This document shows positions 305-21,400 of a stretch of 64,000 bases of DNA, piece after piece (within the stretch, counting starts at the first letter, position 1; each line of letters starts with the position of its first letter). The position numbers and the translations under genes were made by a program. Under the pieces are notes generated by a model that saw only the letters and a program-made list of their open reading frames with translations, did not search any database and was not told where the DNA came from. Source of the DNA: Patescibacteria group bacterium (lineage in GTDB: Bacteria > Patescibacteriota > UBA1384 > XYA2-FULL-43-10 > 1-14-0-10-43-13); NCBI GenBank assembly GCA_041649155.1, contig JBAZNP010000001.1, positions 173,808 through 237,807 on the forward strand, read 5' to 3'.

Positions 305-1081
305 TTATCTGATTCCTGCTTCTTTAACATATTTCCTCATAGTTTCTCTTGCCTCTTCTAATTCCTCGTCCTCGAATGGATCATATTTTATCTTTTCATC
401 GATTTGTTTAGTTTCGACAAAATTTTGAATATAGTAGCGTTTTGCGCCTTGGATTAATTTTCCGATTTCTTCAAAATCTCCAACTTCATGCAAAGGATGA
501 CAGACAGTTGTACGGAATTCATAATCGATGCCGGAGTTCATGATTAAGCTGATTGATTTTTTGATGTTCTGGATTAAGGTATCTTTATCATCTGTCATCC
601 CGACCGAAGCGGAGGGATCTTTTGGCAAGATTTCTCCAATCGTTCGACAAAGCTCACGGGGTCGAAATGACAAACCAGTAGTTTTTGAATATTTACTTAG
701 TGTTGTTTTAATATCCATTGCGATGTAGTCAACATCGCCGCTCGAAATCAGAGGTGCGAGTCCGGTCGGTCTCGAACCATTTGTATCAAGCTTGACCAAA
801 AAACCCATTTCCTTAACTTTATGAATAAATTCGGCGATGTCAGACTGGATCATTGGCTCTCCGCCGGTGATACAAACTGCTTCCAGTTTGCCAATACGGC
901 TTTCTAAAAACGAAAAGAGCTCTCCTTCGTCAAACAATATCCCGCTAAATTTCTCTGGTATTACCAATTCCGGATTATGACAAAAGCCACAACGAAAAGA
1001 ACAGCCACGAGTGAATATCGTGGCTGCCACTTTTCCAGGGTAATCTACCAGAGTTGTCTTTTGTATTCCAGCGATCTGCAT
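305..1081 (-). CDS. nrdG: anaerobic ribonucleoside-triphosphate reductase activating protein (radical SAM)
   Basis: CxxxCxxC radical-SAM motif (GCSFRCGFCHNPE). N-terminus MQIAGIQKTTLVDYPG. C-terminal YEFRTTV region. Lies immediately downstream of nrdD. Start trimmed to the internal Met at 1081 because the longer ORF would overlap nrdD. Confidence 0.85.
   Translation of the reverse strand: MQIAGIQKTTLVDYPGKVAATIFTRGCSFRCGFCHNPELVIPEKFSGILFDEGELFSFLESRIGKLEAVCITGGEPMIQSDIAEFIHKVKEMGFLVKLDTNGSRPTGLAPLISSGDVDYIAMDIKTTLSKYSKTTGLSFRPRELCRTIGEILPKDPSASVGMTDDKDTLIQNIKKSISLIMNSGIDYEFRTTVCHPLHEVGDFEEIGKLIQGAKRYYIQNFVETKQIDEKIKYDPFEDEELEEARETMRKYVKEAGIR
593..620. repeat. in-frame copy of the TGTCATCC...GGAGGGATCT hairpin-repeat family inside nrdG
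   Basis: TGTCATCCCGACCGAAGCGGAGGGATCT has the same termini as the intergenic copies at 8028, 45191, 54776, 61141 and 63959. It encodes KDPSASVGMTDD in the nrdG linker. Confidence 0.5.
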
Positions 1082-1104: not shown

Positions 1105-3294
1105 TTAAACCAGTACTGCCTGCTCCACTCCGACTATTGGCGCAACCATTTCTTCCGGAGTTGAACACTCAGCCGCTTTATCAACCTTAACCATTTTTCC
1201 ATTTATCATCTTATAAGTTTTTCTGTCCTCAAATTCAGCGCGCTTGCCTTGGTTCCATTGCTGAACCGGTCGAATATAACCAACAATTCGAGAATATACT
1301 TCGGTAGCAGATCCACATTTCTTGCATGTATCAACCCTACCAGCCATGTAACCATGATTTGGACAAACCGAGAAAGTAGGAGTAATTGTGAAGTAAGGAA
1401 GGTGATATTTTTCGCAAATGGTTCTTATGAGAGATTTAATAGATTCGACATCATTAATCTCTTCGCCAATGAATAAGTGAACTACTGTGCCCCCTGTGTA
1501 TTTGACTTGAAGATTGTCCTGCAAATCAAGTACTTCAAAGACATCATCAGTATAATCAACAGGAAGATGTGAGGAATTGGTGTAGTAAGGAGCAGTCTTT
1601 GTTTCCTGATAATTATCTTCGTTAGCGACCATAATGTCGGGATAAAGTTCTTTGTCCAATTTTGCCAATCGGAAAGATGTTCCTTCAGCCGGAGTCGCTT
1701 CAAGGTTGTAATTATTACCTGTTTCGGTTTGATATCCAGCCATTCTTTCGCGCATGAAGTCCAAAACCTCTCTGGCAAACTGTTGGCCTTCAGCAGTGGT
1801 AATATCGCGACCCAAAAGATTTAATACCGCTTCATTCATGCCAAGAAGGCCGATAGTTGAAAAGTGATTGGACCAATACTGCTTGTCGCGCTTTTTAATA
1901 TTTCTCAAATAAAATTTGGTGTAAGGATAAAGTCCGGCATCGGTCATATTTTCAAGAACTTTTCTCTTCATTTCCAAACTCTCTTTTGCTAAATCCATCA
2001 AATAACCAAGATTGTAGAAAAATTCTCTTCTGTCGCGTGATCTGTAACCAAGACGTGGTAAATTAATGGTCACAACCCCAATAGAACCAGTCAATGGATT
2101 AGCGCCAAAGAGTCCGCCGCCGCGCTTGCGAAGTTCACGGTTGTCCAATCTTAGTCGACAACACATACTTCTTGCATCCTCTGGGTTCATATCGGAATTA
2201 ACAAAGTTTGAAAAATATGGAATTCCGTACTTTGCCGTCATTCTCCAGACTGGTTCCAAATCTTTATTGTCCCAGTCAAAATCCTTGGTAATATTGTAGG
2301 TTGGAATCGGGAAAGTAAAAACACGGCCTTTGGCGTCGCCTTCGGCAATTACTTCAGCAAAGACTTCGTTAAACAAATTCATTTCTTTTTGAAAATCTTT
2401 GTAAGTTTCTTTTTGTGGTTTTCCGCCAATGACAACAGGCTGGTCAGCCAATGTCGAAGGGCAAAGCAAATCTAAAGTTACATTGGTAAACGGAGTCTGA
2501 AAACCAACACGAGTTGGAACGTTCATGCCAAACATGAAAGTCTGAAGTTCCTGCTTTACTTCATCACGAGTTAGTTTGTCATAACGAATAAACGGAGCCA
2601 TCAAGGTGTCAAAACTGGAAATTGCCTGTGCGCCGGCAGATTCTCCCTGAAGGGTATAGAAAAAATTAACAAGCTGGCCAAGAGCTGTGCCAAAATGCTT
2701 GGCTGGCTTGCATTCAATTTTACCGGCCGCTCCGGTGAAACCTTCCTGAAGTAAATCCTGCAAATCCCAACCAACACAATAAGTGGAAAGAATATTCAAA
2801 TCATGAATATGCATGTCGCCCTCAGAGTTTGCCCTGCTGATTTCTTCACTATAAATTTTGTGAAGCCAATAGCTCTTAGAAACTTCAGAAGCAATGTAAT
2901 TATTTAGTCCTTGAAGCGAATAGGCCATGTTGGAATTTTCTTTGACCTGCCAGTCAATATTTTCAAGGTATTGATCCATCAAGTCGACTTTTTGGGCTTC
3001 AGCTAGATCACGAAGTTCAGCATGTTTCTGTCGATAAATGATGTAACTTTTTGCAGTGCTTCTGTATTTTGAAGCAAGCAAAATTTCCTCAACAACATCC
3101 TGTATTTCTTCAACAGTAGGGATTCTTCTTCTGATTTTTTCCGGCGCCTTTTCCAAAACTTTTTCGGCAAGCTTGCGAGCAACTTTATCATCAAATTCGT
3201 CGGTTGCTTTACCGGCCTTACCAATAGCAGTAACTAATTTTTCAAAATCAAAATTGACAAGCTTTCCGTCTCGTTTTCTGATTTTTGTGTACAT
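1105..3294 (-). CDS. nrdD: anaerobic ribonucleoside-triphosphate reductase, class III
   Basis: 729 aa. N-terminal ATP-cone (MYTKIRKRDGKLVNFDFEKLVTAIGKAG). C-terminal Zn-ribbon CPNHGY...CKKCG and glycyl-radical region RIVGYIRPV. AGGAGG ribosome-binding site 6 nt upstream of the ATG. Confidence 0.9.
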   Translation of the reverse strand: MYTKIRKRDGKLVNFDFEKLVTAIGKAGKATDEFDDKVARKLAEKVLEKAPEKIRRRIPTVEEIQDVVEEILLASKYRSTAKSYIIYRQKHAELRDLAEAQKVDLMDQYLENIDWQVKENSNMAYSLQGLNNYIASEVSKSYWLHKIYSEEISRANSEGDMHIHDLNILSTYCVGWDLQDLLQEGFTGAAGKIECKPAKHFGTALGQLVNFFYTLQGESAGAQAISSFDTLMAPFIRYDKLTRDEVKQELQTFMFGMNVPTRVGFQTPFTNVTLDLLCPSTLADQPVVIGGKPQKETYKDFQKEMNLFNEVFAEVIAEGDAKGRVFTFPIPTYNITKDFDWDNKDLEPVWRMTAKYGIPYFSNFVNSDMNPEDARSMCCRLRLDNRELRKRGGGLFGANPLTGSIGVVTINLPRLGYRSRDRREFFYNLGYLMDLAKESLEMKRKVLENMTDAGLYPYTKFYLRNIKKRDKQYWSNHFSTIGLLGMNEAVLNLLGRDITTAEGQQFAREVLDFMRERMAGYQTETGNNYNLEATPAEGTSFRLAKLDKELYPDIMVANEDNYQETKTAPYYTNSSHLPVDYTDDVFEVLDLQDNLQVKYTGGTVVHLFIGEEINDVESIKSLIRTICEKYHLPYFTITPTFSVCPNHGYMAGRVDTCKKCGSATEVYSRIVGYIRPVQQWNQGKRAEFEDRKTYKMINGKMVKVDKAAECSTPEEMVAPIVGVEQAVLV

Positions 3295-3308
3295 AACACC
3301 CTCCTGAA

Positions 3309-3430
3309 TTAAGTAGTAAGTTGTAAGTAATAAGTTGTAAGTAATAAGTTGTAAGTAATAAGTTGTAAGTAATAAGTTGTAAGTAATAAGTTGTAAGTAA
3401 TAAGTTGTAAGTAATAAGTTGTAAGTAATT
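3309..3430. repeat. 14-bp tandem repeat array (GTAAGTAATAAGTT, about 8.5 copies) in the nrdD 5' leader
   Basis: Seven perfect units at 3323..3420, plus a degenerate first unit and a partial last unit. Lies between the NrdR boxes and the nrdD ribosome-binding site. Confidence 0.9.
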
Positions 3431-3545
3431 ATTTAAATAGCTGGTTTATAGCTTATTTACTTAATCCTTACTTGCTTAATTCTTGTTCGGTAGTTTCAAT
3501 TATAGCTTTCGCCTTATGTTCGGTCAAATTTACAAAATGGATTAA

Positions 3546-3798: not shown

Positions 3799-5343
3799 TT
3801 ACTGTTTACTGACAGTAATTGTAGCTTCGCTTACGTTTCCTGCTGCATCATAGGCTTTGGCCTTAAAAATGTAATCCCCCGAATGTCCAACGAACCATGC
3901 AATCTTTATCCCGATGTAACCGCTATTCTGAGTCGCCAGAAGTTGAGTTCCTGCATAAAATTCCATCTTAACCACGTTCCTATTATCAGTTGCGCGTGCT
4001 TCAAGAATCAATTCTCCACCCGTCCAAGGATGAGGATTATCTGTTGGGTTAAAAATTGTAACAACTGGATTCTCGGTATCAATTTCGTTATTACTAAAAG
4101 TCACAGAGACAGAACTTTCAGCACTTTGGCTGCTATCATAAGCGACTGCTCTCAATGCATAATTGCCATCACTATACGCCCCCGTATTAACTGTTGTTTC
4201 ATATGGGGCAGCTGCATCCTCAGCAATCAGATCATTATTAACATAAAAACCAACCTTTACAACCCCGACATTATCCGAAGCCGAAGCTTTTAGGGTAACT
4301 GATCCCGTAAGTGAAGATCCAATCGATGGCTGCGTAATAGATACAACAGGCGGAGTGGTATCTGAAATTGGCTCAGCGACACTTCCTCCTGAAGCAGATG
4401 TAGCAAGATTGCTTAACCAAGTTTTAGTTGTAACCGACGGATAACCATGGACTTCGCTCATCGCATGATATCCGTAGCCGGAGTAAAAATAAGAATAATC
4501 TTCAGCGATAATTTCAACTTCGCAATTGCCCCATCCGAGAGAATAATCCGTAGCAGTGGCTGCTTTGGAAAGATGACGAGTAGAGTAATAACTGTCAGGA
4601 AATCTGACGCCGGCCGGCAAGTTCAAATCAACCCATTTGTGGTAAAGAGTATAATGATGACCATATTCGTGGGAAAGAACCAGCTTCATGTAATCATAAA
4701 ATTGCGGAGAATCCTTATGATAGTAAACGTTTAAAACTATGTAGCCAAACGCCGAAACAATATCTCCGCTGGAATTAGTTGAATAAGAAGCTTGATATTG
4801 ACCCTCCCAACCAGTATCACCGGCATTCCTGATAGTGATCTGGTACATGTAGCTTACTTCACTACTCCACTTAAGCTGAGAATTTAAATAATCTTTTAAT
4901 GTTTTTTCAAGTGCTGGATAGCTGCCCGTTTCATCGGAATATCTAATACTATAGGGCGAAGCTCCGGTAGGACCAAGACTTGCGATGCTGCTTAACTCCG
5001 ATGAATTTCCACCACCATCAGAAACTAATGTGGTTTTACTCCCGTCAGAATTGGTTGTTGTGTTTCCTGTAATTTTGCTTGAAGCTGAATGCTTAGGAGG
5101 CTCTTGAGCTATAGTGCTGGTTGTTACAGGAGCACTAATCGTAGCTCCTAATTCCGTTGGCATTTGGGTTGTGTCTGTGACTACCGTTTCCTCAATTTTT
5201 GCTGGTTGTCGTCCAAAAGCAGCTTTTACAGAATTCCAAAGACTGCGATCAAAGTAAAAAGTCGCCGAAACAGCCGTTACAATAAATACAAAGGCTATTA
5301 AAAATATGGCAATTTTTTTATCGAATCGATCGGCCCTCAACAT
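3799..5343 (-). CDS. membrane-anchored or secreted HExxH zinc metalloprotease-like protein with C-terminal Ig-like repeats
   Basis: N-terminal TM helix, Ser/Thr-rich linker, HEYGHHYTLYH (HExxH), and two similar C-terminal repeats (VTLKASASDNVGVVKVGFYVNN and TDNRNVVKMEFYAG). Confidence 0.55.
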   Translation of the reverse strand: MLRADRFDKKIAIFLIAFVFIVTAVSATFYFDRSLWNSVKAAFGRQPAKIEETVVTDTTQMPTELGATISAPVTTSTIAQEPPKHSASSKITGNTTTNSDGSKTTLVSDGGGNSSELSSIASLGPTGASPYSIRYSDETGSYPALEKTLKDYLNSQLKWSSEVSYMYQITIRNAGDTGWEGQYQASYSTNSSGDIVSAFGYIVLNVYYHKDSPQFYDYMKLVLSHEYGHHYTLYHKWVDLNLPAGVRFPDSYYSTRHLSKAATATDYSLGWGNCEVEIIAEDYSYFYSGYGYHAMSEVHGYPSVTTKTWLSNLATSASGGSVAEPISDTTPPVVSITQPSIGSSLTGSVTLKASASDNVGVVKVGFYVNNDLIAEDAAAPYETTVNTGAYSDGNYALRAVAYDSSQSAESSVSVTFSNNEIDTENPVVTIFNPTDNPHPWTGGELILEARATDNRNVVKMEFYAGTQLLATQNSGYIGIKIAWFVGHSGDYIFKAKAYDAAGNVSEATITVSKQ

Positions 5344-5353
5344 TCCCTCCTCG

Positions 5354-5390
5354 CCCCGTTTGATAGCGCAAAGCGGCTATCTAACTGGGG
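5354..5390. repeat. conserved leader hairpin, copy 1 (CCCCGTTTGATAGCGCAAAGCGGCTATCTAACTGGGG)
   Basis: Imperfect long hairpin immediately 5' of the ribosome-binding site of the 3799..5343 gene (minus-strand sense). Related copies at 47577 and 54888. Confidence 0.6.
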
Positions 5391-5394
5391 CATA

Positions 5395-5964
5395 TCAAAT
5401 TACTGATTCAACAATTCTCAGTAATTCCTGTTGCGCTTTTTGCAAATCATCATTTATTATCACGTAATTATACTGACCCTTATAGCTCATTTCTAAATCA
5501 TATCGATTTGCTCTGTCTTGTATCGCATCCTCCGAATCGGTTCCTCTTTTTTTCATTCTCGCTATCGCTTCTTTCCTACTTGGAGGCACAATAAAAAAAG
5601 ATAGGATATTATAATCTTCTTTAAATTTTACCAAGCCTTTAACGTCGATATTCATCACTGGAATTTTTCCAGCTTCTACGATTTTTTCTAAATCAGATTT
5701 TTTTCTGCCATAGCGACATTCATCACGGACCATTTCCCATTCCATAAACTCATCATTTTCTATTGCCTTGGAGAATTCTTCCCGACTAATGAAATGATAA
5801 GTTTCTCCGGGAATATCGTCTTCTCTTTGTAATCGATCGGTGTATGAAACAAAAAAAGAAAATCTGTCCGGATATTTTTTAAAAATCTCCATGACAGAAT
5901 TCTTACCAGCGCCACCAACACCCGATATTGCTATTATCGACTTATTTTTTAGGTCCATCTTCAT
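5395..5964 (-). CDS. gmk: guanylate kinase-like nucleoside monophosphate kinase
   Basis: P-loop ISGVGGAGKNS. An SYTDR motif corresponding to the GMK S(T)TTR motif. About 190 aa. Confidence 0.5.
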   Translation of the reverse strand: MKMDLKNKSIIAISGVGGAGKNSVMEIFKKYPDRFSFFVSYTDRLQREDDIPGETYHFISREEFSKAIENDEFMEWEMVRDECRYGRKKSDLEKIVEAGKIPVMNIDVKGLVKFKEDYNILSFFIVPPSRKEAIARMKKRGTDSEDAIQDRANRYDLEMSYKGQYNYVIINDDLQKAQQELLRIVESVI

Positions 5965-8027: not shown

Positions 8028-8053
8028 TGTCATCCCCGCGAAGGCGGGGATCC
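8028..8053. repeat. TGTCATCC...GGATCC hairpin element (TGTCATCCCCGCGAAGGCGGGGATCC)
   Basis: Perfect 8-bp stem ATCCCCGC/GCGGGGAT with a GAAG loop. A member of the repeat family. Confidence 0.6.
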
Positions 8054-8137
8054 AGAAAAATACTTGCATTATTTACATATTGAGAGTTTTTTGATAGAAT
8101 TTGACTGTCTTAATTCAAAAGATGTTTTTTAAATTAT

Positions 8138-8213
8138 TCCCCGATAGCTCAATTGGCAGAGCGCTTCGCTGTTAACGAAGATGTTACTGGTTCGAGTCCA
8201 GTTCGGGGAGCCA
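8138..8213 (+). tRNA. tRNA-Asn (anticodon GTT)
   Basis: Cloverleaf by eye: acceptor TCCCCGA/TCGGGGA, anticodon arm CTTCG-CTGTTAA-CGAAG, T-arm ACTGG-TTCGAGT-CCAGT, encoded CCA. An extended -10 element (TGATAGAAT) lies about 40 bp upstream. Confidence 0.85.
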
Positions 8214-9674
8214 ATTCACATTTTTACTACAAAGAGCCATTGCATCAAATGGCTTTTTGTAATTCCAGAGTAGTTTTTTACCTCTCAACCTAAGGTTTGA
8301 AAGTACGAAATTGATAAGCTGTCTCTTTTCATCTAGTTCACAACTATCAAATAGCTCTACGGCTCTCTTTGCTAGTTCTATAATATAAAAACTCGTTATT
8401 AGGAACTCTTTATCAGCAGTAGTATGATTGCTCATTTTGCCATTCAAGAACTCTTGTCTGTCCTTCAATTCTAGGAATATTTTGTCATATTGGCCGTCAG
8501 TAATACGACCCTTCAAGTTATCCAAATAAGCTTTTTGGACCATACCATCAATTTCGTCAAATTCCTTTCTGAATTGGCGTATTGATGACTTGTATACATC
8601 TCGTTCAGAATAAAAGGTTTTTTCCATTTCAGTTTTTAGTTCTTCCACAACATCATCAGGCATTACTAAGCCAACAAACGCTTTTCTGACTTGAGACAAT
8701 AGTTCTTCCTCTGTAACCCTTTCAGCACCGCATTTGCCCTTATATTGGTTGCAGATGCAATAATTGATACCTTTAGTTGGGTCTTTACCAACCATACAAT
8801 CACAATGGTCGCATTTAACTAGTCCTCTAAATGCAAACGGCTTGCTTGCATACTTAATTACAGTATGAGATTTTCCCTCTCTTACAGCTTTGCATTTTTC
8901 AAATAGCCATTTTTCAATAAGTGGTTCATACCTATGAGGATGAAGTTTGCCGTTATAAAGCATAACCCCATAATAAAAAGGGTTCTTTAATATTTGGTCC
9001 AGTTGGCTTTTTATTACTGGCTTTCCTGCTTTAGTGCTATTTCTTAAACCCTCGTCTTTCAAAATTTGAACTATCTGCTTGAGGCCATAGTTTCCAGTTG
9101 AGTAGAGTTCAAATGCTTTTTTAACCAAATAACCCCTATTTTTATCAATAACTACTTCTTTCCTTTCATTGATATCAGCATTAAGGTAGCCGATAGGTGC
9201 TTTCTCTGGCCATTCGCCATTTCTTATTTTTTGCTCAATTGACCTTTTTACATCATCAGATAATCTGTTCAAATATTGCTTAGCAAGAAAGACCTTTGCT
9301 TCCCACATAAACATTTGGTTACCAGTAGCTTCTGCATTTATATAGAAACCCTCTTGAACAAAGTGTATTTCCAAGCCATCATTTCTTCTTAATTCGTCAA
9401 TATCAACAGCGTCTCGGAAATTTCTCGTTGCTCTGTCTACATTTTGGCAAAGCAAAACCCTAACATCCTTATTTTTCTTCAGATAGTCGAGTACTTCTTC
9501 AAATTTTCTTCTTATTTTGTGTCCAGCACTTTCAGAGAAAGAAAATTCTTTATCAATCTTAAAATTATTTTTGAGGGCATATTCTTTTAGTCTTCTTATC
9601 TGTGCAGGGAGCGAATGCCCCATTTCTTCCTGCTCTTTTGTCGAAACTCTTGCCAGAATTATAGCTTTTCGCAT
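8184..9674 (-). CDS. large serine recombinase (integrase)
   Basis: N-terminal resolvase domain (ILARVSTKEQ with the catalytic Ser, and VDRATRNFRD), a recombinase domain, and a Cys-rich Zn ribbon (CDHCDC...CICNQYKGKCG). The last 10 codons are encoded by the complement of the tRNA-Asn 3' half. Confidence 0.85.
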   Translation of the reverse strand: MRKAIILARVSTKEQEEMGHSLPAQIRRLKEYALKNNFKIDKEFSFSESAGHKIRRKFEEVLDYLKKNKDVRVLLCQNVDRATRNFRDAVDIDELRRNDGLEIHFVQEGFYINAEATGNQMFMWEAKVFLAKQYLNRLSDDVKRSIEQKIRNGEWPEKAPIGYLNADINERKEVVIDKNRGYLVKKAFELYSTGNYGLKQIVQILKDEGLRNSTKAGKPVIKSQLDQILKNPFYYGVMLYNGKLHPHRYEPLIEKWLFEKCKAVREGKSHTVIKYASKPFAFRGLVKCDHCDCMVGKDPTKGINYCICNQYKGKCGAERVTEEELLSQVRKAFVGLVMPDDVVEELKTEMEKTFYSERDVYKSSIRQFRKEFDEIDGMVQKAYLDNLKGRITDGQYDKIFLELKDRQEFLNGKMSNHTTADKEFLITSFYIIELAKRAVELFDSCELDEKRQLINFVLSNLRLRGKKLLWNYKKPFDAMALCSKNVNWLPELDSNQ

Positions 9675-9724
9675 AATAACCTTTCTTATTTATAATTATA
9701 CGTTACTTATAGTCAACAATAAAG

Positions 9725-10822
9725 TTATGTCCCGTCTAAATATTCGCTTATTTTAAGCATTTCAAAGCTACTCAACTGGTTTGATACTTGTTCAAATCCT
9801 TGAGCTTTAACGTTTTTAGGCAGATTTAGAGAGAGTATGTCCTTTTTAAGCTTAGTAAAAGTTTTACCAGATGATGCTTTCTCTAGTAGTCTTTTGAATC
9901 TATCCGCACCCTCCTCTTTGATAACCCTAACAGACATCGCTAACGCCAGTGCTGTAATCGGTCTAAATTTACGGCTCTCTAAAATTTTTTCAAGAACAGT
10001 AAAATCATCGCTGTCCTTTATAAGTGCTAATTGCATATTTGAAGTTATCTCTTCCCAATAATGATTTAGCACCTGTTGAGATAGCTTTTTTGAGAACATA
10101 TTTTCTAAGGTCAAATCATTAGTAATGTTGAGAGTTTTGAATAATTGTTTAATCTTTGCCCTTTTCACTAATCTAATTTCAAATCTCAACACTTCCATCG
10201 GTCTCTGTTTCTTCTTAATTTCGTCAAATAAATTAAGCTGAATTGCACTCTCTTTCTCAAAAGCTCTTTTTTCGCTTATCTTGGATTGCTCCATATCCTT
10301 AATCTTGTCGTAAATTGCAATTTCAAATGAATTACAGTGAAAATGCAAAATATAACCAAAATTTCTAAAGCTATTTTGTTGAATATCAAGGCGTTTAGTT
10401 AGGTCAATCTTCTTAAGTTCATTCAGAATCATTGTACTTTTCCAGTAATTGCTTAGAGCTATATTTTTAGAAAAATCTATTTTTGACACATCAGCCGTTC
10501 TCAAAAAAGAAGGAAAAACCCCAATGCCCATAATCTTTAATCTTTCGGCAAGAATTTTGACGAGACTGTCGAAATCAGTTTCATTAAGTTCATCAAAGTT
10601 GTTACCGAACAGCATTTTTGGTGCTGAAAATTCAATCTTTAAGAACAACTTTGAACCGCCCCGCTTATATGGGGTCAATCTTGGCAAATAAACATCGCTT
10701 TTTCTGCTTCCGTTATAGGCGAGTTTGTCAAAGCCATTGTTAGAGGAAATTGGGATGAACTTAGTGTTATCTGTTATCCAAAATTCATTCGGCTTCAAAG
10801 TTATGGCTATTGTATCTATCAT
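9725..10822 (-). CDS. putative replication-initiation protein (Rep_trans-like), or hypothetical
   Basis: About 365 aa with no clear motif. The assignment is only by general resemblance to rolling-circle or phage Rep proteins and by island context. The start is uncertain and overlaps spoVG. Confidence 0.3.
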   Translation of the reverse strand: MIDTIAITLKPNEFWITDNTKFIPISSNNGFDKLAYNGSRKSDVYLPRLTPYKRGGSKLFLKIEFSAPKMLFGNNFDELNETDFDSLVKILAERLKIMGIGVFPSFLRTADVSKIDFSKNIALSNYWKSTMILNELKKIDLTKRLDIQQNSFRNFGYILHFHCNSFEIAIYDKIKDMEQSKISEKRAFEKESAIQLNLFDEIKKKQRPMEVLRFEIRLVKRAKIKQLFKTLNITNDLTLENMFSKKLSQQVLNHYWEEITSNMQLALIKDSDDFTVLEKILESRKFRPITALALAMSVRVIKEEGADRFKRLLEKASSGKTFTKLKKDILSLNLPKNVKAQGFEQVSNQLSSFEMLKISEYLDGT

Positions 10823-11087
10823 TACTTTTTTCAATTACTTCTTTGGCTTTGTTAATTATTGCTTCTTCAATACTCTTGGAAGTTTCTTTATTGATGGGAT
10901 GGAATAAATTTATTTGCCTAATCCCAATTTGCTTTGTGGGGTAGGTTATCCGATAGCCAGAACCATCAGCTTTTACGTGTATCCCAATAGAACTTAAGTA
11001 GATGCTCTGATTAACTACCAAGCTCGCAAACGCAATTAGACCATCTTTTGCCTTAATGGGGATAATTTGTACTTCAGATATTTCCAT
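10785..11087 (-). CDS. spoVG: SpoVG-family nucleic-acid-binding protein
   Basis: MEISEVQIIPIKAKDGLIAFASLVVNQSIYLSSIGIHVKADG...FHPINKETSKSIEEAI aligns to the SpoVG core (MEVTDVRLRRV...AIASITLD...HDIRV...HPIN). Confidence 0.6.
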   Translation of the reverse strand: MEISEVQIIPIKAKDGLIAFASLVVNQSIYLSSIGIHVKADGSGYRITYPTKQIGIRQINLFHPINKETSKSIEEAIINKAKEVIEKSNDRYNSHNFEAE

Positions 11088-11316
11088 CGTTTACTCCTTC
11101 TTTTTCTTTCTGTCTTATTCGGAGGTCTATTTTCATAAGTAATTCAAAGAAGCCGACTAAATTGCTTTTCATATCTGCAATCTCATCAACAGAAAGAGCG
11201 TGGCCGTAAAGTTGTTCAAGGGGTGTAGATTGTTTTTTGGTTTCTTGCATAAAAAATATCCTCGAATAGAGGATACTTCTTAGATTATGGTCGCTACTAT
11301 GCTACTGAATGGTCTC

Positions 11317-11991
11317 TTATGGTCTCAAATGGTCTTTGTCTTTATTATTGACTCTTACCATTAAGCTCAAATTACCGCAGTTATTGACTAATTCGACAGG
11401 TTTTAATTTTGTTCTAGTCCTTATCTTCTTAATCCTGTCGTTTATAATAATATTATTTAGTGTTTTATCATTTGCGTCAGATTCGCTTAAACCGAGTTCG
11501 CTCAATAGCTCCTGCCTTGAAAGGTAACCGTTATTAAGAACTATCTTATTGAATATCTTGTAAAGATTTTTATCTGTTTGAAATTTGAACGGATTGTCCT
11601 TGATATAACCAATCCCAGAACTAGGACTATACCAGTTTGTAGTTTCTGGCTCGGCAATCTGTTCTTTCTTAGTTTTGCCTTTTCTTAATTGTTCAAGGGT
11701 TAGTCTTCGTATTTCCGCTTCCTCTCTCTGTTTTGTAAAATCAGGGGCAATAGCCGTATAAGTTACTGGCTCAGGGAAATTAAATTGGGGCATCTCTATT
11801 TTTCCAAGGCGTTTCAAGTTTTCTGCAGCTGAGGCTGCCGCATCTTTTACGGCAGACAACATAGTTCCAGAAATAATATCTTTTGGGATTATGCTGTTTG
11901 CTTTTACTAATTCGCCAAGACCTGAAAAATTATCCGAGGATTCGGGAAGATTATCTAGGTCTAAATCAAATTTTTTACTATTTTCGCTCAT
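11317..11991 (-). CDS. hypothetical protein
   Basis: 224-aa ORF on the island with no recognisable motif. Confidence 0.4.
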   Translation of the reverse strand: MSENSKKFDLDLDNLPESSDNFSGLGELVKANSIIPKDIISGTMLSAVKDAAASAAENLKRLGKIEMPQFNFPEPVTYTAIAPDFTKQREEAEIRRLTLEQLRKGKTKKEQIAEPETTNWYSPSSGIGYIKDNPFKFQTDKNLYKIFNKIVLNNGYLSRQELLSELGLSESDANDKTLNNIIINDRIKKIRTRTKLKPVELVNNCGNLSLMVRVNNKDKDHLRP

Positions 11992-12016
11992 ATTATTACT
12001 GCTTTAGGTTCGTTTT

Positions 12017-12898
12017 TTAGAACTTCATTTCAGGCACTTTTTTAGTTTTAATTCTATCATCCATAGTATCTATATTTTCTAGTAGTTGCTTATCAGGAAT
12101 TTTTATTGCTATCTCTTTTGATAAATTAAGGTATTTCCTAGCTTCTCGGTATCGGTACATTGTCCTCAGCTGATTGGCATAATTATAAAGAGCTAGTGCT
12201 TTTTCTGGCAAATCGTTATTTTCTTCTGAGATACTAATCGCTTTGAGAAAAAACTTATCAGCTTCTTTGTGTAGTAATTTCAATCCTTTTTTGTCTTTTC
12301 TATTATACAAGAGATGCTCTAATCTTTTCTCAATCAACCAATGTTGTAACCCATTCTTTCCAATTTTATTGTATCGTAATTCCATTGAGCGATAGCCGTA
12401 TGCTTGGCCAATCATTGAATAAACAGTTGACATAAGAGCAGAATCTTTTGTCTTATCTGCTATGCCCTCTGCTTCCTTGAGACTTTGTGTTGCATTTTCT
12501 TCTAGGTCACTTAGCTCTTGCTCAAGCGTTTCATATTCAACTTGTTCTCTTTCAAGCGAAAACTCAAACCATTCAGGCGAGAGTTTTATTCTTTTCATTC
12601 TGTCTATACTTCTTAGTTTCTTGTGAAGTGAGAGCAATCCTTTATAACACAAAGCGATAGCTTTTATATCCTTGTCTACCAATCTGTTGGACAAGCGTAT
12701 TGTTTCGTTGGTTATGACCAAAAGCTGTTCTGTATCTCTCACAGGGTCCAAAGAACGATTAAGCTCCAGACCACAATTTAATCGCATAACCACATTAGAA
12801 GAAGAATTAAAAATATCAAGAAACATCTTTGCTGCTTCCTCTTTATGCCCAACTACGATCATTGCTTCGGCTTGGCTAAATTTATCTTCTTCGGACAT
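12017..12898 (-). CDS. hypothetical protein (helical, possibly TPR-like)
   Basis: 293 aa. Overlaps the upstream gene by 17 nt, which suggests an operon. Confidence 0.45.
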   Translation of the reverse strand: MSEEDKFSQAEAMIVVGHKEEAAKMFLDIFNSSSNVVMRLNCGLELNRSLDPVRDTEQLLVITNETIRLSNRLVDKDIKAIALCYKGLLSLHKKLRSIDRMKRIKLSPEWFEFSLEREQVEYETLEQELSDLEENATQSLKEAEGIADKTKDSALMSTVYSMIGQAYGYRSMELRYNKIGKNGLQHWLIEKRLEHLLYNRKDKKGLKLLHKEADKFFLKAISISEENNDLPEKALALYNYANQLRTMYRYREARKYLNLSKEIAIKIPDKQLLENIDTMDDRIKTKKVPEMKF

Positions 12899-13829
12899 AT
12901 TTGTATCTTATACTTAATAAAAATATTCTAAGTTTATTGGGGATTACCTTTTTTAGAAAAAATTTGATATCCAGAGGGTATTTGCTAAACCAAATTCTTT
13001 TTAAGGCAGAGGAGCTGGACACAAAGTAGTTACGGCACGACCCTCTAATCATTCTGTTATCTTCCTGAACACGTTTATCTGAAATTTCAATGTATCCTCT
13101 TAAATCGTTCCAGCAGAAACAAGCCACAATATCAGTAGATAGCGGTATTGTCAGCTGGATATTCTTTTGACCCAAGCCATACCCATAAAATCTTTGCCAC
13201 TGCAAATCAGGATTAAACAAATGGCAAGGTTCATCAGAAGTTATGAACTTAGCTTTACCTTTTTTTGCTGAGCATAAGAAAGATAAGTTCATATGAACGA
13301 GCATTTCTGTTATATCTGGCAACAGATTTGACAAAGTTAACTTATGAGCGTCTGTCTTATAGCTTCTGAGTTCATTGGATTTCTTCGGAGGTATATTATG
13401 AGCAGCTTCCATCCGCTCTGTCATTTCAATAATCTGGTCTAAGTTCTGTTCAATGTTTTCCTTTTGACCTTTAGTTCTTAGCATCATTGCGGCAACAAAA
13501 GCGCACAATATAATATGTTCTTCATTAGACAAGGGTTTTCTTTTTGCAATCTTATCCTGAAAAATGAGGGCATACTTATCTTCCAGCTCAGAAAGAGAAA
13601 TTTCAATTGAGTAATCATAAACGTTATTGGCACAAGAAGCTTTAGGGGATTTTAACGAGTAAATATGTTTGCTAACAAAAGCTTTCTCAACTTTCTTGAG
13701 TTCTTTTGTCTTGCCGTCTTTGCTAAATATCCATATCCGCGGGTCGTTGCCCGACTGACTTGGGTCTGAAAATTGCTTAAGATAGCATTGAGAAATATAA
13801 TGTTGTCGCTTAGGATTACCCATAAGCAA
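12882..13829 (-). CDS. DUF4238-like protein
   Basis: The N-terminal RQHYISQCYLKQF motif resembles the DUF4238 signature (HYvPqfYLrxF). Confidence 0.4.
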   Translation of the reverse strand: MLMGNPKRQHYISQCYLKQFSDPSQSGNDPRIWIFSKDGKTKELKKVEKAFVSKHIYSLKSPKASCANNVYDYSIEISLSELEDKYALIFQDKIAKRKPLSNEEHIILCAFVAAMMLRTKGQKENIEQNLDQIIEMTERMEAAHNIPPKKSNELRSYKTDAHKLTLSNLLPDITEMLVHMNLSFLCSAKKGKAKFITSDEPCHLFNPDLQWQRFYGYGLGQKNIQLTIPLSTDIVACFCWNDLRGYIEISDKRVQEDNRMIRGSCRNYFVSSSSALKRIWFSKYPLDIKFFLKKVIPNKLRIFLLSIRYKYVRRR

Positions 13830-13883
13830 AATATAGTTCTATATGGGCAATAAATCAAGGAAAAGTGTGTTTAATCTAGGGGA

Positions 13884-14573
13884 TTAAAGGTCCAGTAACT
13901 TTTCACCAAGCGAAGTGCTTAATTGCCATTTCATACTGCCATTTGAGAACATTTCGTTTATCATACCTAGCTCGTGCTGGTCTGCCCATTCTTTTGGAAA
14001 GGGATAAGCATCTTGATTCTTGCTGACCAAGTCAACACAATAAGAAATATCAATACAATCAGTAGCTAATTTTGCTTGACCGTCTTTATCTCTTACTTTC
14101 CCATAATTGATATCCCAGTTCTTAAAATCCTCAATTTTTTCTTTATCATCAAAAAGACTGTAATAAGATTTCTTGTCTTTGGAATGTAACTCAACGGCCG
14201 CTTTTTTCAGCTCTTCATCGGTAGGTTTTTGCGAGAAAACAATTAGTTTCCAAGTCTTCCCAGATTTTTGATAGCTAGTGACTTCACTGTAGGAAATTGT
14301 TGGCGTTGGGTTAGCTTTTGGTGTTTCTGTTGTTTGTTGGGCGGATTGCGCAGGTTGTTCTTTCTTCTCGTTTGTTGAACTTTTATCTGAACTTGAAGAA
14401 GAACCTGCAAGAACAAAGAACACAATAATTACTGCTCCTGTGGCAATCCATTTATTTCTTTTGTTCCAATCTGTTTTTGCCCAAACATACCAAGTAAGAA
14501 AGAACGGCCAGATACATATTGCCAGTATTACTCCCCACCATTTTTTGTACCATACTTGTTTCTCTTCTTTCAT
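13884..14573 (-). CDS. membrane protein, paralog A1 of 22032..22673
   Basis: N-terminal TM segment (WWGVILAICIWPFFLTWYVWAK) followed by a Ser-rich linker. Clear similarity to the protein at 22032..22673. Confidence 0.5.
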   Translation of the reverse strand: MKEEKQVWYKKWWGVILAICIWPFFLTWYVWAKTDWNKRNKWIATGAVIIVFFVLAGSSSSSDKSSTNEKKEQPAQSAQQTTETPKANPTPTISYSEVTSYQKSGKTWKLIVFSQKPTDEELKKAAVELHSKDKKSYYSLFDDKEKIEDFKNWDINYGKVRDKDGQAKLATDCIDISYCVDLVSKNQDAYPFPKEWADQHELGMINEMFSNGSMKWQLSTSLGEKLLDL

Positions 14574-14575
14574 TT

Positions 14576-15163
14576 TTACCCTTTCTTGTTAATATTTTTT
14601 ATGCCCTTAAAATAAAGTTCAGCATCCTTTGAGCTTGGACCAGATATAATAAAATGTTCATCTTTAGCCATTTCGGGATATTTTATAGTTAATGAGTTTT
14701 TTAGCATTCCATTATTAAATAAAATATCAATCGCTTTCTCATATAAAACACTTATCATTGAATTTTGCCCGACAAATATAAATCGTTTGTTGGTCATAAT
14801 CATTTGACCTGCATCTATCCTCTCAACCGCTTCTACTGATTTTTCAGAGGTTTTACTTCCCGCTGTTACAGCTCCGCCTAAAGCACCGAGTGGACCGAGC
14901 AATAATCCTCCGACAACCGCTCTGCCAGCAACACCTTTTTTCTTTTCGGTGCTGATTGTATGACTTACAATTGCCATTCTTTGAGATGAGAAAGTAGCAT
15001 ATGCATTCTCATCTGGTTCAAGGTTAAAATCAGTTTTTATCGGTTGGATATGACCTTCCAATATCTCGTTTTTTCTATGCTCTTCCTCAGCTTTTTTCCT
15101 ACTTTGCTCATCTTGATAATTTTCATAACCTTTTTTGATTTTAGAAATCAGGTCAAAACCCAT
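14576..15163 (-). CDS. glycine-zipper TM plus bacterial-PH-like protein, paralog B1 of 21432..22010
   Basis: KKGVAGRAVVGGLLLGPLGALGGAVTAGSKT is identical in both paralogs. The C-terminus (TNKRFIFVG...) is bPH_2-like. Start set at MGFDLISKIKKGY by homology. Confidence 0.5.
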   Translation of the reverse strand: MGFDLISKIKKGYENYQDEQSRKKAEEEHRKNEILEGHIQPIKTDFNLEPDENAYATFSSQRMAIVSHTISTEKKKGVAGRAVVGGLLLGPLGALGGAVTAGSKTSEKSVEAVERIDAGQMIMTNKRFIFVGQNSMISVLYEKAIDILFNNGMLKNSLTIKYPEMAKDEHFIISGPSSKDAELYFKGIKNINKKG

Positions 15164-15250
15164 AACGAACCTCTTTCTATGATTACTATTTCTGATAGTG
15201 TGACTTATAATCCGTAGACCTATAGTCATAATCTACCACAAAATGGTAGT

Positions 15251-15478
15251 ATGATAAAAGAGCAAGAGCTAAAATCTATCACAAAGAAATTCGGCCAACG
15301 AATTAGAGATGAGCGTACGAAGCAAGGGATATCCCAAGAGGAGCTTGGTTTTAGGACTGGTTTGGATAGAACTTATATTTCAGGTATTGAAAGAGGCGAA
15401 AGAAATCCGTCACTTAAAAACATCGCCAAAATAGCCATTGCTCTAAAAATAAACTTGAACGAGCTCTTTACCCTCTAA
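15251..15478 (+). CDS. XRE-family HTH transcriptional regulator
   Basis: QEELGFRTGLDRTYISGIERGERNPSLKNIAKIAIAL is a classic Cro/C1-type HTH. Confidence 0.7.
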   Translation: MIKEQELKSITKKFGQRIRDERTKQGISQEELGFRTGLDRTYISGIERGERNPSLKNIAKIAIALKINLNELFTL

Positions 15479-15527
15479 CAGTCTTCAAAATTTGGCTTTA
15501 CTAAGCTTTTTTTGGTATACCAAGATT

Positions 15528-16094
15528 ATGATGAATTTCTCAAACAATGTTTTTGGACCGCAACCGCCTAGGTTCTTACCGATAAAACCGCCAAAGCGGA
15601 AAGTTTTTATTAGCTTTCATCACGCCAATGACCAACAAGCTTACAATATATTGAAGAGATTATTTTCTGATAAATACGAGGTGTTCGAGGACCATTCGTT
15701 AAACAACCAGCTAATCAATAGCCAAATAGCCGAAAATATTGACCGAGCAATACGAGAGCGTTTTATAAAAGGGTCTTCAATTACAATTGTTCTGTGCGGT
15801 GAAGAGACCCACAAAAGAAAATATGTTGATTGGGAGATAAACTCAACATTACTACACGAACACGCATTGCTCGGAATTGTTCTACCGACAGCTACAAAGA
15901 ATGTTCAAAACCAGCACATTGTTCCAGACAGATTGGCTGTGAACGCAAATTCTGGCTATGCCCACTGGGAGCTGTGGGATAATTGTGCTGGAAGTGCAGA
16001 CAATATAAATATGGCAATTGAAGTGGCATTGTTAAATAGTAAAAACAAAAAGCTACTAGACAATTCTCTTCCTAAGATGCATAGGAATTTATGA
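15528..16094 (+). CDS. TIR-like domain protein (DUF1863 / ThsB-like)
   Basis: KVFISFHHANDQQ and KYVDWEINS motifs typical of MTH538/TIR-like domains. Overlaps the downstream gene by ATGA. Confidence 0.55.
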   Translation: MMNFSNNVFGPQPPRFLPIKPPKRKVFISFHHANDQQAYNILKRLFSDKYEVFEDHSLNNQLINSQIAENIDRAIRERFIKGSSITIVLCGEETHKRKYVDWEINSTLLHEHALLGIVLPTATKNVQNQHIVPDRLAVNANSGYAHWELWDNCAGSADNINMAIEVALLNSKNKKLLDNSLPKMHRNL

Positions 16095-16516
16095 AGAACG
16101 ATGAAAAAATAAAGCATCTAGAGTTCATTCAAGGCGTCATCAACCGTTTGGCCAATAACTCCTTCTTGATTAAGGGATGGCTAATAACAATTACTTTAGC
16201 TGGACTGAGCTTTTATCTGACTCAAAAGAAGACCACCATTCTACCAATTCTATTGGCAACAGCAATTCTTTTTTGGTTTTTGGATTCTTATTATCTTAGA
16301 CAAGAGCGATTGTTTAGAAGATTGTATGCCGATGTGGTAAAAGGAAAAATAGAGCCAATCTTTGATATGGATGTTTCAAGATATCAAGACAAAATCCAAA
16401 ACTCATTTGCCACAATGTTCTCTTATCCCAATTGCTTTTTATATATTGCGATTATTGCACTAATATTGGTTCAAATTGTGCTGTCTCTCAAAATTGAGAT
16501 AAGCATAAAATTCTAA
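16091..16516 (+). CDS. small multi-TM protein, SLATT-like putative membrane effector
   Basis: 141 aa. An N-terminal helix followed by 2 to 3 hydrophobic TM segments. Translationally coupled to the TIR-like gene. Confidence 0.35.
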   Translation: MKNDEKIKHLEFIQGVINRLANNSFLIKGWLITITLAGLSFYLTQKKTTILPILLATAILFWFLDSYYLRQERLFRRLYADVVKGKIEPIFDMDVSRYQDKIQNSFATMFSYPNCFLYIAIIALILVQIVLSLKIEISIKF

Positions 16517-18159
16517 CGAGTTAAAGTTAATTCGGGTATTCTCTTGAGAAAAGCATACTCGGACAGAACTTTAATTTCGTTATTTAATTGCAGAATTGAA
16601 TCATAGTATTCAGTTCTGAACTTATACACCAAGGGGAGCCATAGTTGCGATTTTATAAAATGAGCTTGTGATTCACCTTGTTGAGTCTCAACTTGTGGTA
16701 AAGAAAGCAGTGTTTCAAACAATTCAGTTGGCACTGCTTTTTTGATTTTCCTATTTTCGACTATTATCTCGTTCCAAAATAGGTCAATATACGCTCTTTT
16801 TCTTTTTGGACTTGCCGTCAAATATGCCTTGAATACATCCTCTGCTAAAAACATTAGCTCTTCAAACACCCGTGTGTTATCAGCTCTATTTACTTGAAGC
16901 TTGCCTAGTTTCTTTTCTACAACTTTCAGCTCGTTCTTTATTCTTGTGGTTTGTCGGATATAAGTTTCACTACCAATTACTCTGTTGCCAAGGTCTTCTT
17001 CATAGTTAGATCTCTGCTTTTCTAGCTTGTTTTGCTCGGACAACAAGTTGTTTCTAGCAATATCAATATGATTATGATTTTGCGATAGATATTTTTTTGC
17101 CTGAAAGACTATTTTTCCAATCAGCCGTTTGGGTAATTGAAGATTTTTGAATAACTCTTCTACCATTTTCTCCAAGTCCTTAGTGCTTATGTTCTGTAAT
17201 TTATTTGAGTGAACAGAGCTACTTGCGGGACAATGATAATACGCTTTTTCTTTAGCGCCGTGATGCTCAGCGGTGTAATGCCGACCACATTTCCCACATT
17301 TTATATAACCGCTTAAAAGAAATTGATGTTTTCTTTTTCTGTCGACATATTTGTTGTGTTGCTCTAAAATTTCATTGCAAGTTTCAAAAGTTGTTTGATT
17401 TATGATTGGCTCGTGCTTTCCTGGATAAATTTCACCTTTGAATTCAATTTTTCCAGTATAAAAAACTTCTTTAAGAATGTTGATCATCGCTTGCTTCCCA
17501 ATTTTGTTGCCAGTTCGTGATCTTAAGCCTTCCTCAAACATAATGTCGCACAGATTTTCAACAGAATATGATCCGGTAGCAAATAGCTTAAATGCTTTTT
17601 CAAGTAATGGTGCGACTACCTTATCTAGTGCTATAATATTTCTCTCAAAACCACTCGTTACTGTTTCATTAACCACATTCTTATAACCTATTCGTGCAGG
17701 ACCAGCCCACCAACCTGCTTGAATCTTCTCCATCATTGAAATACTAGTTTTTCTGCCTGTTATCTTTGGGGTTAGTGCATTAACTGCAGCCAAAATTGAA
17801 TCCATAAATCTACCCTCGGGTGAGTCATCTAACATAGGCTGATTTATTGATCTGATCTTCGTTCCAGATTTTAGTAGCATTGATTTAACCGCGAAATGTA
17901 GAGACTCATCTCTAGCCAATCGGTCAGTATCAATAACGTAAACGTAATCAACAGAGTTATTCTTACAATAAGCAATCATTTCTTGCAGTCCTGGGCGGTT
18001 CGGATTGCTTCCAGATAAACCTTCATCTTGAAAAACTTCAAGCAAGTTGCCTCCGTCTTCGGCAATAGCTATCTTTCCTTTGCTCATTTGCGTTGGGATA
18101 GAGCAATCCTTTTTGGCCTGTTCGTCAGTGCTTACACGTCCATAAATTACACAATTCAT
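16513..18159 (-). CDS. large serine recombinase (second copy)
   Basis: IYGRVSTDEQ with the catalytic Ser, VIDTDRLARDE, a recombinase domain, and a Zn-ribbon Cys cluster (CGKCGRHY...HCPA). Confidence 0.85.
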   Translation of the reverse strand: MNCVIYGRVSTDEQAKKDCSIPTQMSKGKIAIAEDGGNLLEVFQDEGLSGSNPNRPGLQEMIAYCKNNSVDYVYVIDTDRLARDESLHFAVKSMLLKSGTKIRSINQPMLDDSPEGRFMDSILAAVNALTPKITGRKTSISMMEKIQAGWWAGPARIGYKNVVNETVTSGFERNIIALDKVVAPLLEKAFKLFATGSYSVENLCDIMFEEGLRSRTGNKIGKQAMINILKEVFYTGKIEFKGEIYPGKHEPIINQTTFETCNEILEQHNKYVDRKRKHQFLLSGYIKCGKCGRHYTAEHHGAKEKAYYHCPASSSVHSNKLQNISTKDLEKMVEELFKNLQLPKRLIGKIVFQAKKYLSQNHNHIDIARNNLLSEQNKLEKQRSNYEEDLGNRVIGSETYIRQTTRIKNELKVVEKKLGKLQVNRADNTRVFEELMFLAEDVFKAYLTASPKRKRAYIDLFWNEIIVENRKIKKAVPTELFETLLSLPQVETQQGESQAHFIKSQLWLPLVYKFRTEYYDSILQLNNEIKVLSEYAFLKRIPELTLTR

Positions 18160-21110: not shown

Positions 21111-21286
21111 CTTTATCTTTATACTTATACTTACTTAAACCAACGTAACAAATTAGAACTGATTACTCAATTGTCCATTGTGTTTTTGATAATTTTGAGG
21201 CATAATTCAAATTGTCAGAGCGATCTGATAAACACAATCTAGTTGCACCTAACCCTTACCAGCAATGATAAGGTATGGTGCCAAAT

Positions 21287-21400
21287 CCTCGGTTAAAAAC
21301 AATGACGGTCTAGCGACCGCACTTTTTAACCGAGGTCTGTGCTCGAAAGGGCGCAGGATAGTCCCGAAAGGGGCTGTCGTGGTTCGCTAGGCCATTTTTG
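21287..21400. other. structured intergenic element: 13-bp-stem hairpin plus two GAAA-tetraloop hairpins
   Basis: CCTCGGTTAAAAA..(23 nt)..TTTTTAACCGAGG, then GCTC-GAAA-GGGC and GTCCC-GAAA-GGGGC. Lies about 30 bp upstream of the paralog B2 start. Confidence 0.3.

Follow-up and report, generated by a model that had tools for sequence, protein, structure and literature searches.

The nrdG gene of a Patescibacteria group bacterium was found to carry a pair of inverted palindromic repeats within its reading frame. The gene is located at 305-1081 (-) in a 64-kb stretch of DNA (assembly GCA_041649155.1, contig JBAZNP010000001.1, positions 173,808 to 237,807), which represents about 8% of the 798,787-bp contig. 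This whole stretch is referred to as the window, and coordinates are counted from its first nucleotide. An initial annotation had described a 28-mer, TGTCATCCCGACCGAAGCGGAGGGATCT, at 593-620 (+) as a member of an intergenic hairpin family and had suggested that it was exapted into nrdG. With a probability of about 80%, the 28-mer is one arm of a heterodimer with outward-facing tags that resembles the REPINs (REP doublets forming hairpins; REP, repetitive extragenic palindromic), is located in a surface loop of NrdG and is translated as a tolerated, probably disordered passenger of 27 residues.

Anatomy of the dimer in nrdG

Element A (593-620, +) consists of a TGTC tag at 593-596, a bulged hairpin (ATCCC-GA-CCG-AAG-CGG-A-GGGAT) at 597-618 and a CT tail. 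Its stem of eight base pairs is broken by a 2/1-nt internal loop and closed by a 3-nt loop. A spacer of 7 nt (TTTGGCA, 621-627) separates this arm from element B, TGTCATTTCGACCCCGTGAGCTTTGTCGAACGATTGGAGAAATCT, at 628-672 (-), which shares the TGTCAT...ATCT termini, has an expanded interior of 39 nt and is read as (L)SFRPRELCRTIGEI. The two arms are inverted relative to each other with the TGTC tags outside and together form an insert of 80 nt (593-672), the ends of which are 13-nt imperfect terminal inverted repeats, TGTCATYYCGACC. Together with base 673 they constitute an 81-nt block (593-673, -) of the form TTGTCAT...ATGACA in gene sense, which is in frame, free of stop codons and corresponds to NrdG residues 137-163, LSFRPRELCRTIGEILPKDPSASVGMT. 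Of the element's six frames, one contains a TGA, and this frame is not used.

The initial annotation had correctly placed the 28-mer in the nrdG reading frame without disruption of the frame; read from the minus strand it encodes DPSASVGMT with no stop. An element is indeed present, but it is not a single 28-mer of about 10 residues. The second arm, 7 nt away at 628-672, had been overlooked, as had an in-frame copy in the alanine racemase gene (see below). The peptide quoted at that time, KDPSASVGMTDD, is encoded by the element only in part, while its residues D, D and K stem from flanking or spacer codons.

The insert has a close counterpart between genes. A repeat finder run on the window detected an inverted match of 38 nt between 641-678 and 61053-61090 with 97% complementarity (37/38). 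The latter region belongs to an intergenic pair at 61059-61184 (arms 61059-61122 and 61141-61184), in which a B arm and an A arm are arranged with outward-facing tags as in nrdG. In this pair the spacer is longer than in the nrdG pair, and both arms contain a nested GC-rich palindrome that enlarges them (CCTGCCTGCCGGCAGGCAGG; CTGCCTGCTGGCAGG). Two related loci, L001 and L005, have the short spacer in their nrdG copies as well (TTATCAGA and TTATCAAA, respectively, in gene sense).

The element family in the window

A search of the window allowing up to 3 mismatches yielded a second copy of the 28-mer at 63959-63986 (+) with 3 mismatches, while dinucleotide-preserving shuffles gave 0.00 matches at the same threshold. 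This copy is intergenic and of the A type, and it is located at the edge of the window, where any partner would fall beyond it. Two of the three differences are compensatory and convert the inner stem from CCG/CGG to CCA/TGG. This change is the evidence for maintenance of the stem that does not depend on selection of the sequences.

The structural pattern, consisting of [CT]GTCAT and 3 nt, a variable interior, the complementary 3 nt and ATC, matched nine times in the window, compared with 0.7 matches expected from second-order Markov simulations; one of the nine matches, at 58448, is probably due to chance. A looser version gave 13 matches compared with 2.65 expected; such loose patterns also catch A/T-rich chance matches. 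A relaxed hairpin scan for further coding copies in the window gave 10 matches compared with 4.25 expected, none of which was both new and convincing. With two slightly imperfect copies added to the matches of the strict pattern, the family amounts to about 10 units at seven loci. All 10 units begin with TGTC, and their mean GC content is 54%, compared with 37% for the window. Long open reading frames (ORFs) make up 85% of the window but contain only two of the seven loci (binomial P = 0.001). The hairpin family is real, dispersed and mainly intergenic, as the initial annotation had proposed, and the termini that it had described as common to 8028, 45191, 54776/54818, 61141 and 63959 all agree with TGTCAT...ATC(T/C).

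The remaining intergenic members comprise two singletons and a dimer. The singleton at 8028-8054 (+), TGTC-ATCCCCGC-GAAG-GCGGGGAT-CCA, has a canonical 8-bp stem, a 4-nt loop and a CCA tail. The singleton at 45191-45216 (-), TGTCATCCTCGTGAAGACGGAGATCT, is slightly degenerate. The pair TGTCATTCCAGACTTGATCTGGAATCT ... GGATCCCGTATCAAGTACAGGATGACA at 54776-54844 (arms 54776-54802 and 54817-54844) has outward-facing tags, 8-bp stems and 5-nt loops.

In the window and related loci together, 22 short members share an 8-bp stem that starts with AT, a loop of 4 or 5 nt and a C(C/T)N tail. CCA is the tail of 9 of the 22 and also of 8028 and 54817; the nrdG arms and most of the remaining units have CT(N). 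Double changes were seen in five of the eight stem pairs and 98-100% of cells were paired, figures which are descriptive and circular because the set had been chosen for its stems. AT...AT was invariant in every unit, which is again circular in part, as the search pattern itself contained AT; the 28-mer and the copy from the mismatch search also have AT.

No Rfam family was found at the nrdG element. The only Rfam matches in the window were two tRNAs and a LOOT RNA motif (RF03000) at 21246-21378 (+), which scored 69.2 bits compared with a gathering score of 46.4.

Palindromes were also found inside other elements. The GC-rich palindrome CCTGCCTGCCGGCAGGCAGG is nested in both arms of the intergenic dimer (61096-61115 and 61154-61169). 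A solitary copy lies at 38355-38374, with a TGTCAG tag in front of it and a duplicated motif, TGTGAAAGATCTGTG, after it (38350-38390). Small palindromes apparently insert within loops of other elements.

NrdG and the position of the insert

The gene at 305-1081 (-) encodes 258 amino acids, is represented by a 100% identical protein (P0001) and matches Pfam families PF04055 and PF13353. It codes for the anaerobic ribonucleoside-triphosphate reductase activating protein, a radical S-adenosylmethionine (SAM) enzyme, and its named homologues are NrdG activases. The CxxxCxxC core of radical-SAM enzymes is present as CSFRCGFC at residues 27-34. The gene for the class III ribonucleotide reductase, nrdD (1105-3294, -), lies directly upstream in the same orientation, and orthologous loci show Pfam matches to ATP-cone and NRDD. 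A 14-nt unit, TAAGTAATAAGTTG, is repeated in tandem about eight times at 3296-3449, immediately upstream of the start codon of nrdD (3294).

An AlphaFold2 model of NrdG was built on an alignment of 32 sequences and had a mean predicted local distance difference test (pLDDT) score of 85.6. Values below 50 occurred only at residues 141-153 and 155-159, within the insert. In this model the insert is flanked by helices at residues 128-135 and 166-181 and follows beta-4 (YIAMDIK) and precedes beta-5 (DYEFRTTV). The best Foldseek matches of the model were radical-SAM enzymes. A sequence search of the PDB gave no close solved homologue of NrdG, and the loop position is therefore taken from the AlphaFold model. 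The most plausible reading of the insert is a surface excursion, predicted to be disordered, on the helical face of the partial barrel.

Comparison of NrdG orthologues

Alignment of NrdG orthologues, which had been proposed as a check in the initial annotation, identified the segment as a derived insertion that is absent from close and distant orthologues. Among the 120 best homologues, proteins of 227-229 amino acids have a short link (e.g. TAGVKVIVENVRKSI) in place of the 27 extra residues. The close homologues P0004, P0006 and P0008 (67-69% identity, 228-229 aa) read GVKVIVENV at this position and have no insert, and the site was empty in the codon alignment of the locus of P0004 (L003, 69% identity). 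In 61 of 81 species-representative loci, including those of Patescibacteria, Deltaproteobacteria and archaea, exactly 32 residues separate DIK from YEFRTT; the interval is expanded in 16 of the 81. Because close and distant orthologues do not have the block and 61 of the 81 loci show the interval of 32 residues, the sequences indicate that the insert is the derived state and that the ancestral NrdG had no such segment. The nrdG genes of all 80 orthologous loci are intact.

The same dimer was found in two orthologues. In L001 (P0002, 84% identity) it lies at the matching place, and a further 12-nt palindrome is nested in arm B. In L005 (P0015, 58% identity) it lies five codons further in and is embedded in other inserted sequence. 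Orthologues with this peptide from genomes devoid of the family, which according to the initial annotation would have refuted its reading, were not found: the peptide was restricted to L001 and L005, both of which have family members on their contigs as well, with the flanks of a further locus, L089, being outside the scan.

The block of the window and that of L005 were identical at 74 of 81 positions without gaps, while the flanking nrdG coding DNA was only 62-64% identical. Six of the seven differences are non-synonymous in a codon comparison, and nearly all third positions are identical. Uniformity of the block is therefore maintained by something operating at the nucleic acid level and not at the protein level. 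Either one old insertion with precise losses or repeated insertion may underlie the nrdG dimers found in the window and in L001, L005 and L089, as sequence identity is no clock for this family.

Recurrent insertion in NrdG and alanine racemase

The loop that contains the dimer is a hotspot. Among the nearest 119 homologues, 90 were longer than the baseline at this position, 77 had at least 10 extra residues and the maximum was +72. About 40 of the 90 expanded homologues showed peptide signatures of the repeat family according to a rough motif match. Independent members of the family in nrdG were confirmed on the DNA level at four loci. L088 (P0003, 72% identity) has a different canonical singleton, TGTCATTCCCGCGAAGGCGGGAATCT, which is read as CHSREGGNL, and L010 and L013 have other long members that are read as VIS.... 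L089 (P0009, 59% identity) has four or five clustered and nested elements, including an exact arm A at the matching right-hand junction. In the nrdG region of this locus (5001-5900) an 18-nt duplication, GCTCGTCATTCCGGACTT, flanks a REP that is nested in another REP; this duplication could be the footprint of an insertion mechanism or a product of slippage.

The loop is clearly permissive in general. Common A/T-rich repeats (CAATnAnCAA...ATATTTGAA) were observed in the intergenic regions 39578-39677 and 60395-60495 of the window, and low-complexity sequence of this kind is also translated in the NrdG hotspot elsewhere (KLNENWKL type in L005, P0023, P0025 and others).

A second in-frame member was found at 42212-42256 (+) in the alanine racemase gene alr (41427-42596, -), where it encodes the peptide ISRLFASGDIARND. 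The closest Alr orthologues P0123 and P0125-P0127 (73-79% identity) do not have this segment, while P0124 does, and alignments with solved Alr structures show gaps at the position of the element. More distant Alr proteins of the candidate phyla radiation (CPR) have other REP-like peptides at the matching loop, e.g. RFFAGTQNDK and CHSCESRNLDSGSQ, and this loop is for that reason regarded as a second hotspot.

A recurrent hotspot in an essential radical-SAM activase, with inserts of up to 72 residues that are built from clustered and nested hairpins, represents a natural experiment on how a loop tolerates foreign sequence. Annotators should recognise REP inserts, which lengthen and disturb alignments of proteins from the CPR and give rise to spurious 'hypothetical' peptides.

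Distribution beyond the window

The family was found in dozens of unrelated loci and genomes. Elements located between genes occur in either orientation relative to the flanking genes. Variants with a CGTC tag are present in related loci, e.g. at L001 14125, at L005 13738 and in L067, and many dimers with outward-facing tags were found in L001, L005, L023, L024, L032, L039, L046, L062, L066, L067, L070 and L090. L090 is a phage-like contig from IMG/VR with a GC content of 61.6%. In its region 4680-4840, just after a gene resembling those of phage tail fibres, the exact 26-nt core of arm A forms one arm of a pair with outward-facing tags. The canonical core of the CGTC type, GTCATTCCCGCGAANGCGGGAATC, occurred in at least 120 viral contigs, and viruses may for this reason carry the elements between hosts. 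Exact elements that are common to very distant genomes and to viral contigs sharpen the question of what mobilises REPs of the CGTC type.

Alternative explanations

A functional nucleic acid structure in the nrdDG transcript or DNA, such as an mRNA stabiliser, a barrier to RNases, a translational pause site or a site for protein binding, would be in accordance with conservation at the nucleotide level. As sense RNA, the 81-nt block folded into a single long hairpin with an outer stem in which the arms pair via G.U wobbles (-34.8 kcal/mol, z = -4.25), and none of 200 shuffles was as stable. REPs in other bacteria have been reported to work as RNA elements (PMC3733652). However, the nrdG dimer region had an unremarkable stability as plus-strand DNA (z = -1.84), close orthologues manage without the insert, and elements of these types are found both between genes, irrespective of the orientation of the flanking genes, and in the phage-like contig of 61.6% GC. 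The dimer at 61059-61184, if transcribed, would moreover be transcribed from the strand on which the arms cannot form wobble pairs. We consider this explanation unlikely.

Slightly less likely still is the exaptation proposed in the initial annotation, according to which the REP-encoded peptide acquired a function in NrdG, for example as a flexible linker or as a loop docking to NrdD, and was kept by selection on the protein. The dimer has been kept at the loop in the window, in L001 (84% amino acid identity) and in L005 (58%), and arm A in L089 (59%), and most relatives have some extension there. Purifying selection at the protein level would produce the opposite of six non-synonymous differences out of seven, however, and both the length (0 to +72 aa) and the content of the loop vary freely among close relatives, some of which have no insert. 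The segment is also predicted to be disordered. Exaptation is thus not supported, and a passenger fits these data better.

It is very improbable that the insert is left untranslated by programmed translational bypass or removed from the RNA. Programmed bypass is known from gene 60 of phage T4, and mobile GC-rich 'byp' hairpins are bypassed by ribosomes in yeast mitochondria; a stable hairpin inside a coding sequence would be compatible with such a process. However, all hotspot inserts examined were in frame and free of stops, and 80 of 80 orthologous loci were intact, as is predicted by selection for read-through translation but would not be needed for bypass. There were no matching take-off and landing codons (GGT before the block and GAT after it), and no features of an intron or intein were present in the 81 nt.

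Chance resemblance, or an origin of the intergenic copies as decayed fragments of nrdG, might be considered because the elements are short and loose patterns also catch chance matches, but it is refuted by the absence of matches in shuffled sequences, the copy counts (9 versus 0.7 expected), the 37/38 identity of a coding and an intergenic copy, the spread of the family over dozens of unrelated loci and genomes as well as at least 120 viral contigs, and an ancestral NrdG that had no such segment.

Mechanism and search for a mobilising enzyme

In the preferred explanation, the NrdG loop that holds the TGTC/CGTC-tagged dimer of 81 nt lies between two helices, a short one that follows beta-4 and the long one after it. 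The dimer would be translated as an excursion of 27 residues that is probably disordered and is tolerated by the enzyme rather than removed. Translation is suggested by the reading frame, since the insert is stop-free in frame and divisible by three in length. In analogy to the GTAG-REP/RAYT and IS200/IS605 systems (RAYT, REP-associated tyrosine transposase), the elements would spread as single-stranded DNA hairpins handled by an enzyme that recognises tag and hairpin. They would preferentially land in or beside existing hairpins, which would account for the nesting. Selection would then remove coding insertions except in-frame, stop-free ones in permissive loops, where hotspots would result.

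Several results weigh against this explanation. Neither a target-site duplication nor a conserved target motif was visible at the junctions examined. Other loop inserts derive from A/T-rich low-complexity sequence (KLNENWKL type), and because many inserts are not REP-like, a permissive loop may by itself account for the hotspot, with no targeting involved. No correlation was seen between expansion of the loop and family members located in the flanks of +/-10 kb (Fisher p = 1), in a comparison with short flanks and a strict detector that misses bulged members. A scan of metagenomes for the short-spacer junction found it only in nrdG of the P0002 lineage, a scan of limited coverage that did not return the window's own contig; movement of the exact dimer as a unit is for this reason not demonstrated. 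Searches of the window and all loci with IS200 TnpA (tblastn) gave only noise (E >= 0.27), the query being a weak probe. Pfam scans of 40 ORFs of the window detected no HUH transposase and, as recombinases, only the two large serine recombinases of an island. As no transposase or other mobilising gene was identified, the mobility of the elements is deduced from their distribution.

The probable integrated island with defence genes extends from 8138 to 18159. It comprises a tRNA (8138-8210), a large serine recombinase (8184-9674), a DUF4238 protein, a ThsB-like TIR protein (15492-16094) and the second large serine recombinase (16513-18159). The REP singleton at 8028-8054 is located just before the tRNA.

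A possible association of these hairpins with small GIY-YIG nucleases was rejected. A six-frame regular expression search of the window found no such gene, the GIY-YIG ORFs of L001 and L003 are not located beside repeats, and L003 has the gene without having repeats.

The hotspot may also reflect targeting, for instance of existing hairpins, to which the nesting of elements points. A more far-reaching and rather doubtful proposal is that the alpha-4 loop of NrdG and the loop of Alr are genuine landing pads, with a machinery directed to pre-existing hairpins or to some local feature of the DNA. In many Patescibacteria, elements would accumulate and nest at matching codon positions, and the few sequence types, which are identical in a CPR genome of 37% GC and a phage-like contig of 62% GC, would be kept uniform through recognition by a conserved, possibly virus-borne enzyme. 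If this were true, CPR bacteria, with about 800 genes per genome, would be the best place to identify the enzyme by presence/absence profiling.

Other repeats in the window

A separate hairpin family, CCTGTTTGATAnnGCAAAGCnnTATCTAA, is present in three copies at 5355-5384, 47590-47619 and 54888-54917, each in a short intergenic gap. These hairpins are possibly terminators or another class of repeats. The RNase J gene (52810-54762, -) encodes 650 amino acids, with the first Pfam domain only near residue 107. Near the 5' end of this gene and upstream, direct repeats were found at 52337-52426 and 52672-52839 (45 nt in two copies; 30 nt at a spacing of 138 nt).

Comparison with known systems

The CGTC-tagged REP superfamily was defined by Di Nocera, De Gregorio & Rocco (2013, BMC Genomics 14:522; PMC3733652). 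Its stems begin with A-T and T-A and comprise 8-9 bp, the loops are 4-5 nt long (longer in some families), and the tails are mostly CCA. The elements occur mainly as dimers with the tags outside (HH), often as heterodimers, in Proteobacteria, Chlorobi, Bacteroidetes, Spirochaetes and Thermotogae, and they include RPE-4 and RPE-6 of Rickettsia conorii and dRS3 of Neisseria (PMC3733652). In-frame intragenic dimers encoding 20-30 residues have been described, with peptides such as CHSRESGNP, VIPAKAGI, SFPRKRES, DSRFRGND, IPAFAGMT and RHPGLDPGS (Additional file 3), whereas insertion at the same site was reported only for recB of Xanthomonas (PMC3733652). The superfamily has no dedicated transposase, and no RAYT-like enzyme is known for the CGTC group (PMC3733652).

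On the basis of its sequences the present family fits this superfamily, because its short members at 8028, 54776 and 54844 agree with it in every feature and the nrdG arms agree in tag, AT stem and dimer structure, although they deviate in having a bulged stem (A) or an enlarged interior (B). It shares the unpaired (C/T)GTC tag, the stem initiated by AT, the dimers with tags outside, the preference for intergenic regions and the occasional in-frame copies. The 22 short units, including 8028, 54776 and 54844, fit the 8-bp stem and the loop of 4-5 nt exactly. The 27 residues encoded by the nrdG dimer are within the published range of 20-30, and the peptides CHSREGGNL, VIP/VIS..., LSFRPRE..., ...ARND and ...SVGMT belong to the same classes as those published. 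In contrast to the published families, the host belongs to the Patescibacteria/CPR and thus lies outside the five phyla, the tag is mostly TGTC and the tail CT(N), and many copies are bulged or enlarged by nested palindromes. Furthermore, one loop of one protein family is here a recurrent hotspot across many genomes.

RPE-1 palindromic repeats were reportedly found by Ogata and coworkers in 2000 in frame in Rickettsia genes, at surface regions and in a manner compatible with folding. The insert in nrdG resembles them in these respects. While RPE-1 has a length of about 100-150 bp and is restricted to Rickettsia, the elements described here are hairpins of 24-45 nt or a pair of 80 nt and cross phylum boundaries.

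REPINs and GTAG REPs are mobilised by RAYT (TnpA-REP) enzymes, which are tyrosine HUH transposases. Like REPINs, the elements of the window form inverted pairs of short hairpins able to adopt a single long hairpin structure, are dispersed and mainly intergenic and have a tetranucleotide tag beside the stem, and the REPIN/RAYT system offers a plausible mechanism via single-stranded DNA. They differ in the tag, which is (C/T)GTC instead of GTAG, and searches of the window and of related loci totalling about 1.2 Mb gave no RAYT- or IS200-like gene. The 80-nt dimer is also similar to a MITE, or miniature inverted-repeat transposable element, by having 13-nt imperfect terminal inverted repeats and no coding capacity. 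Unlike in MITEs, no target-site duplication was present at any junction examined, the conserved feature is the hairpin and tag of each arm, and single arms occur.

A prior description of the family in Patescibacteria or of the element sequences was not found in the searchable literature. In-frame palindromic repeats in genes, first noted in Rickettsia (RPEs), and the CGTC-tagged superfamily are already known; new are the presence of this superfamily, in an active-looking form, in Patescibacteria, the hotspot in the NrdG loop and the second in-frame copy in alr.

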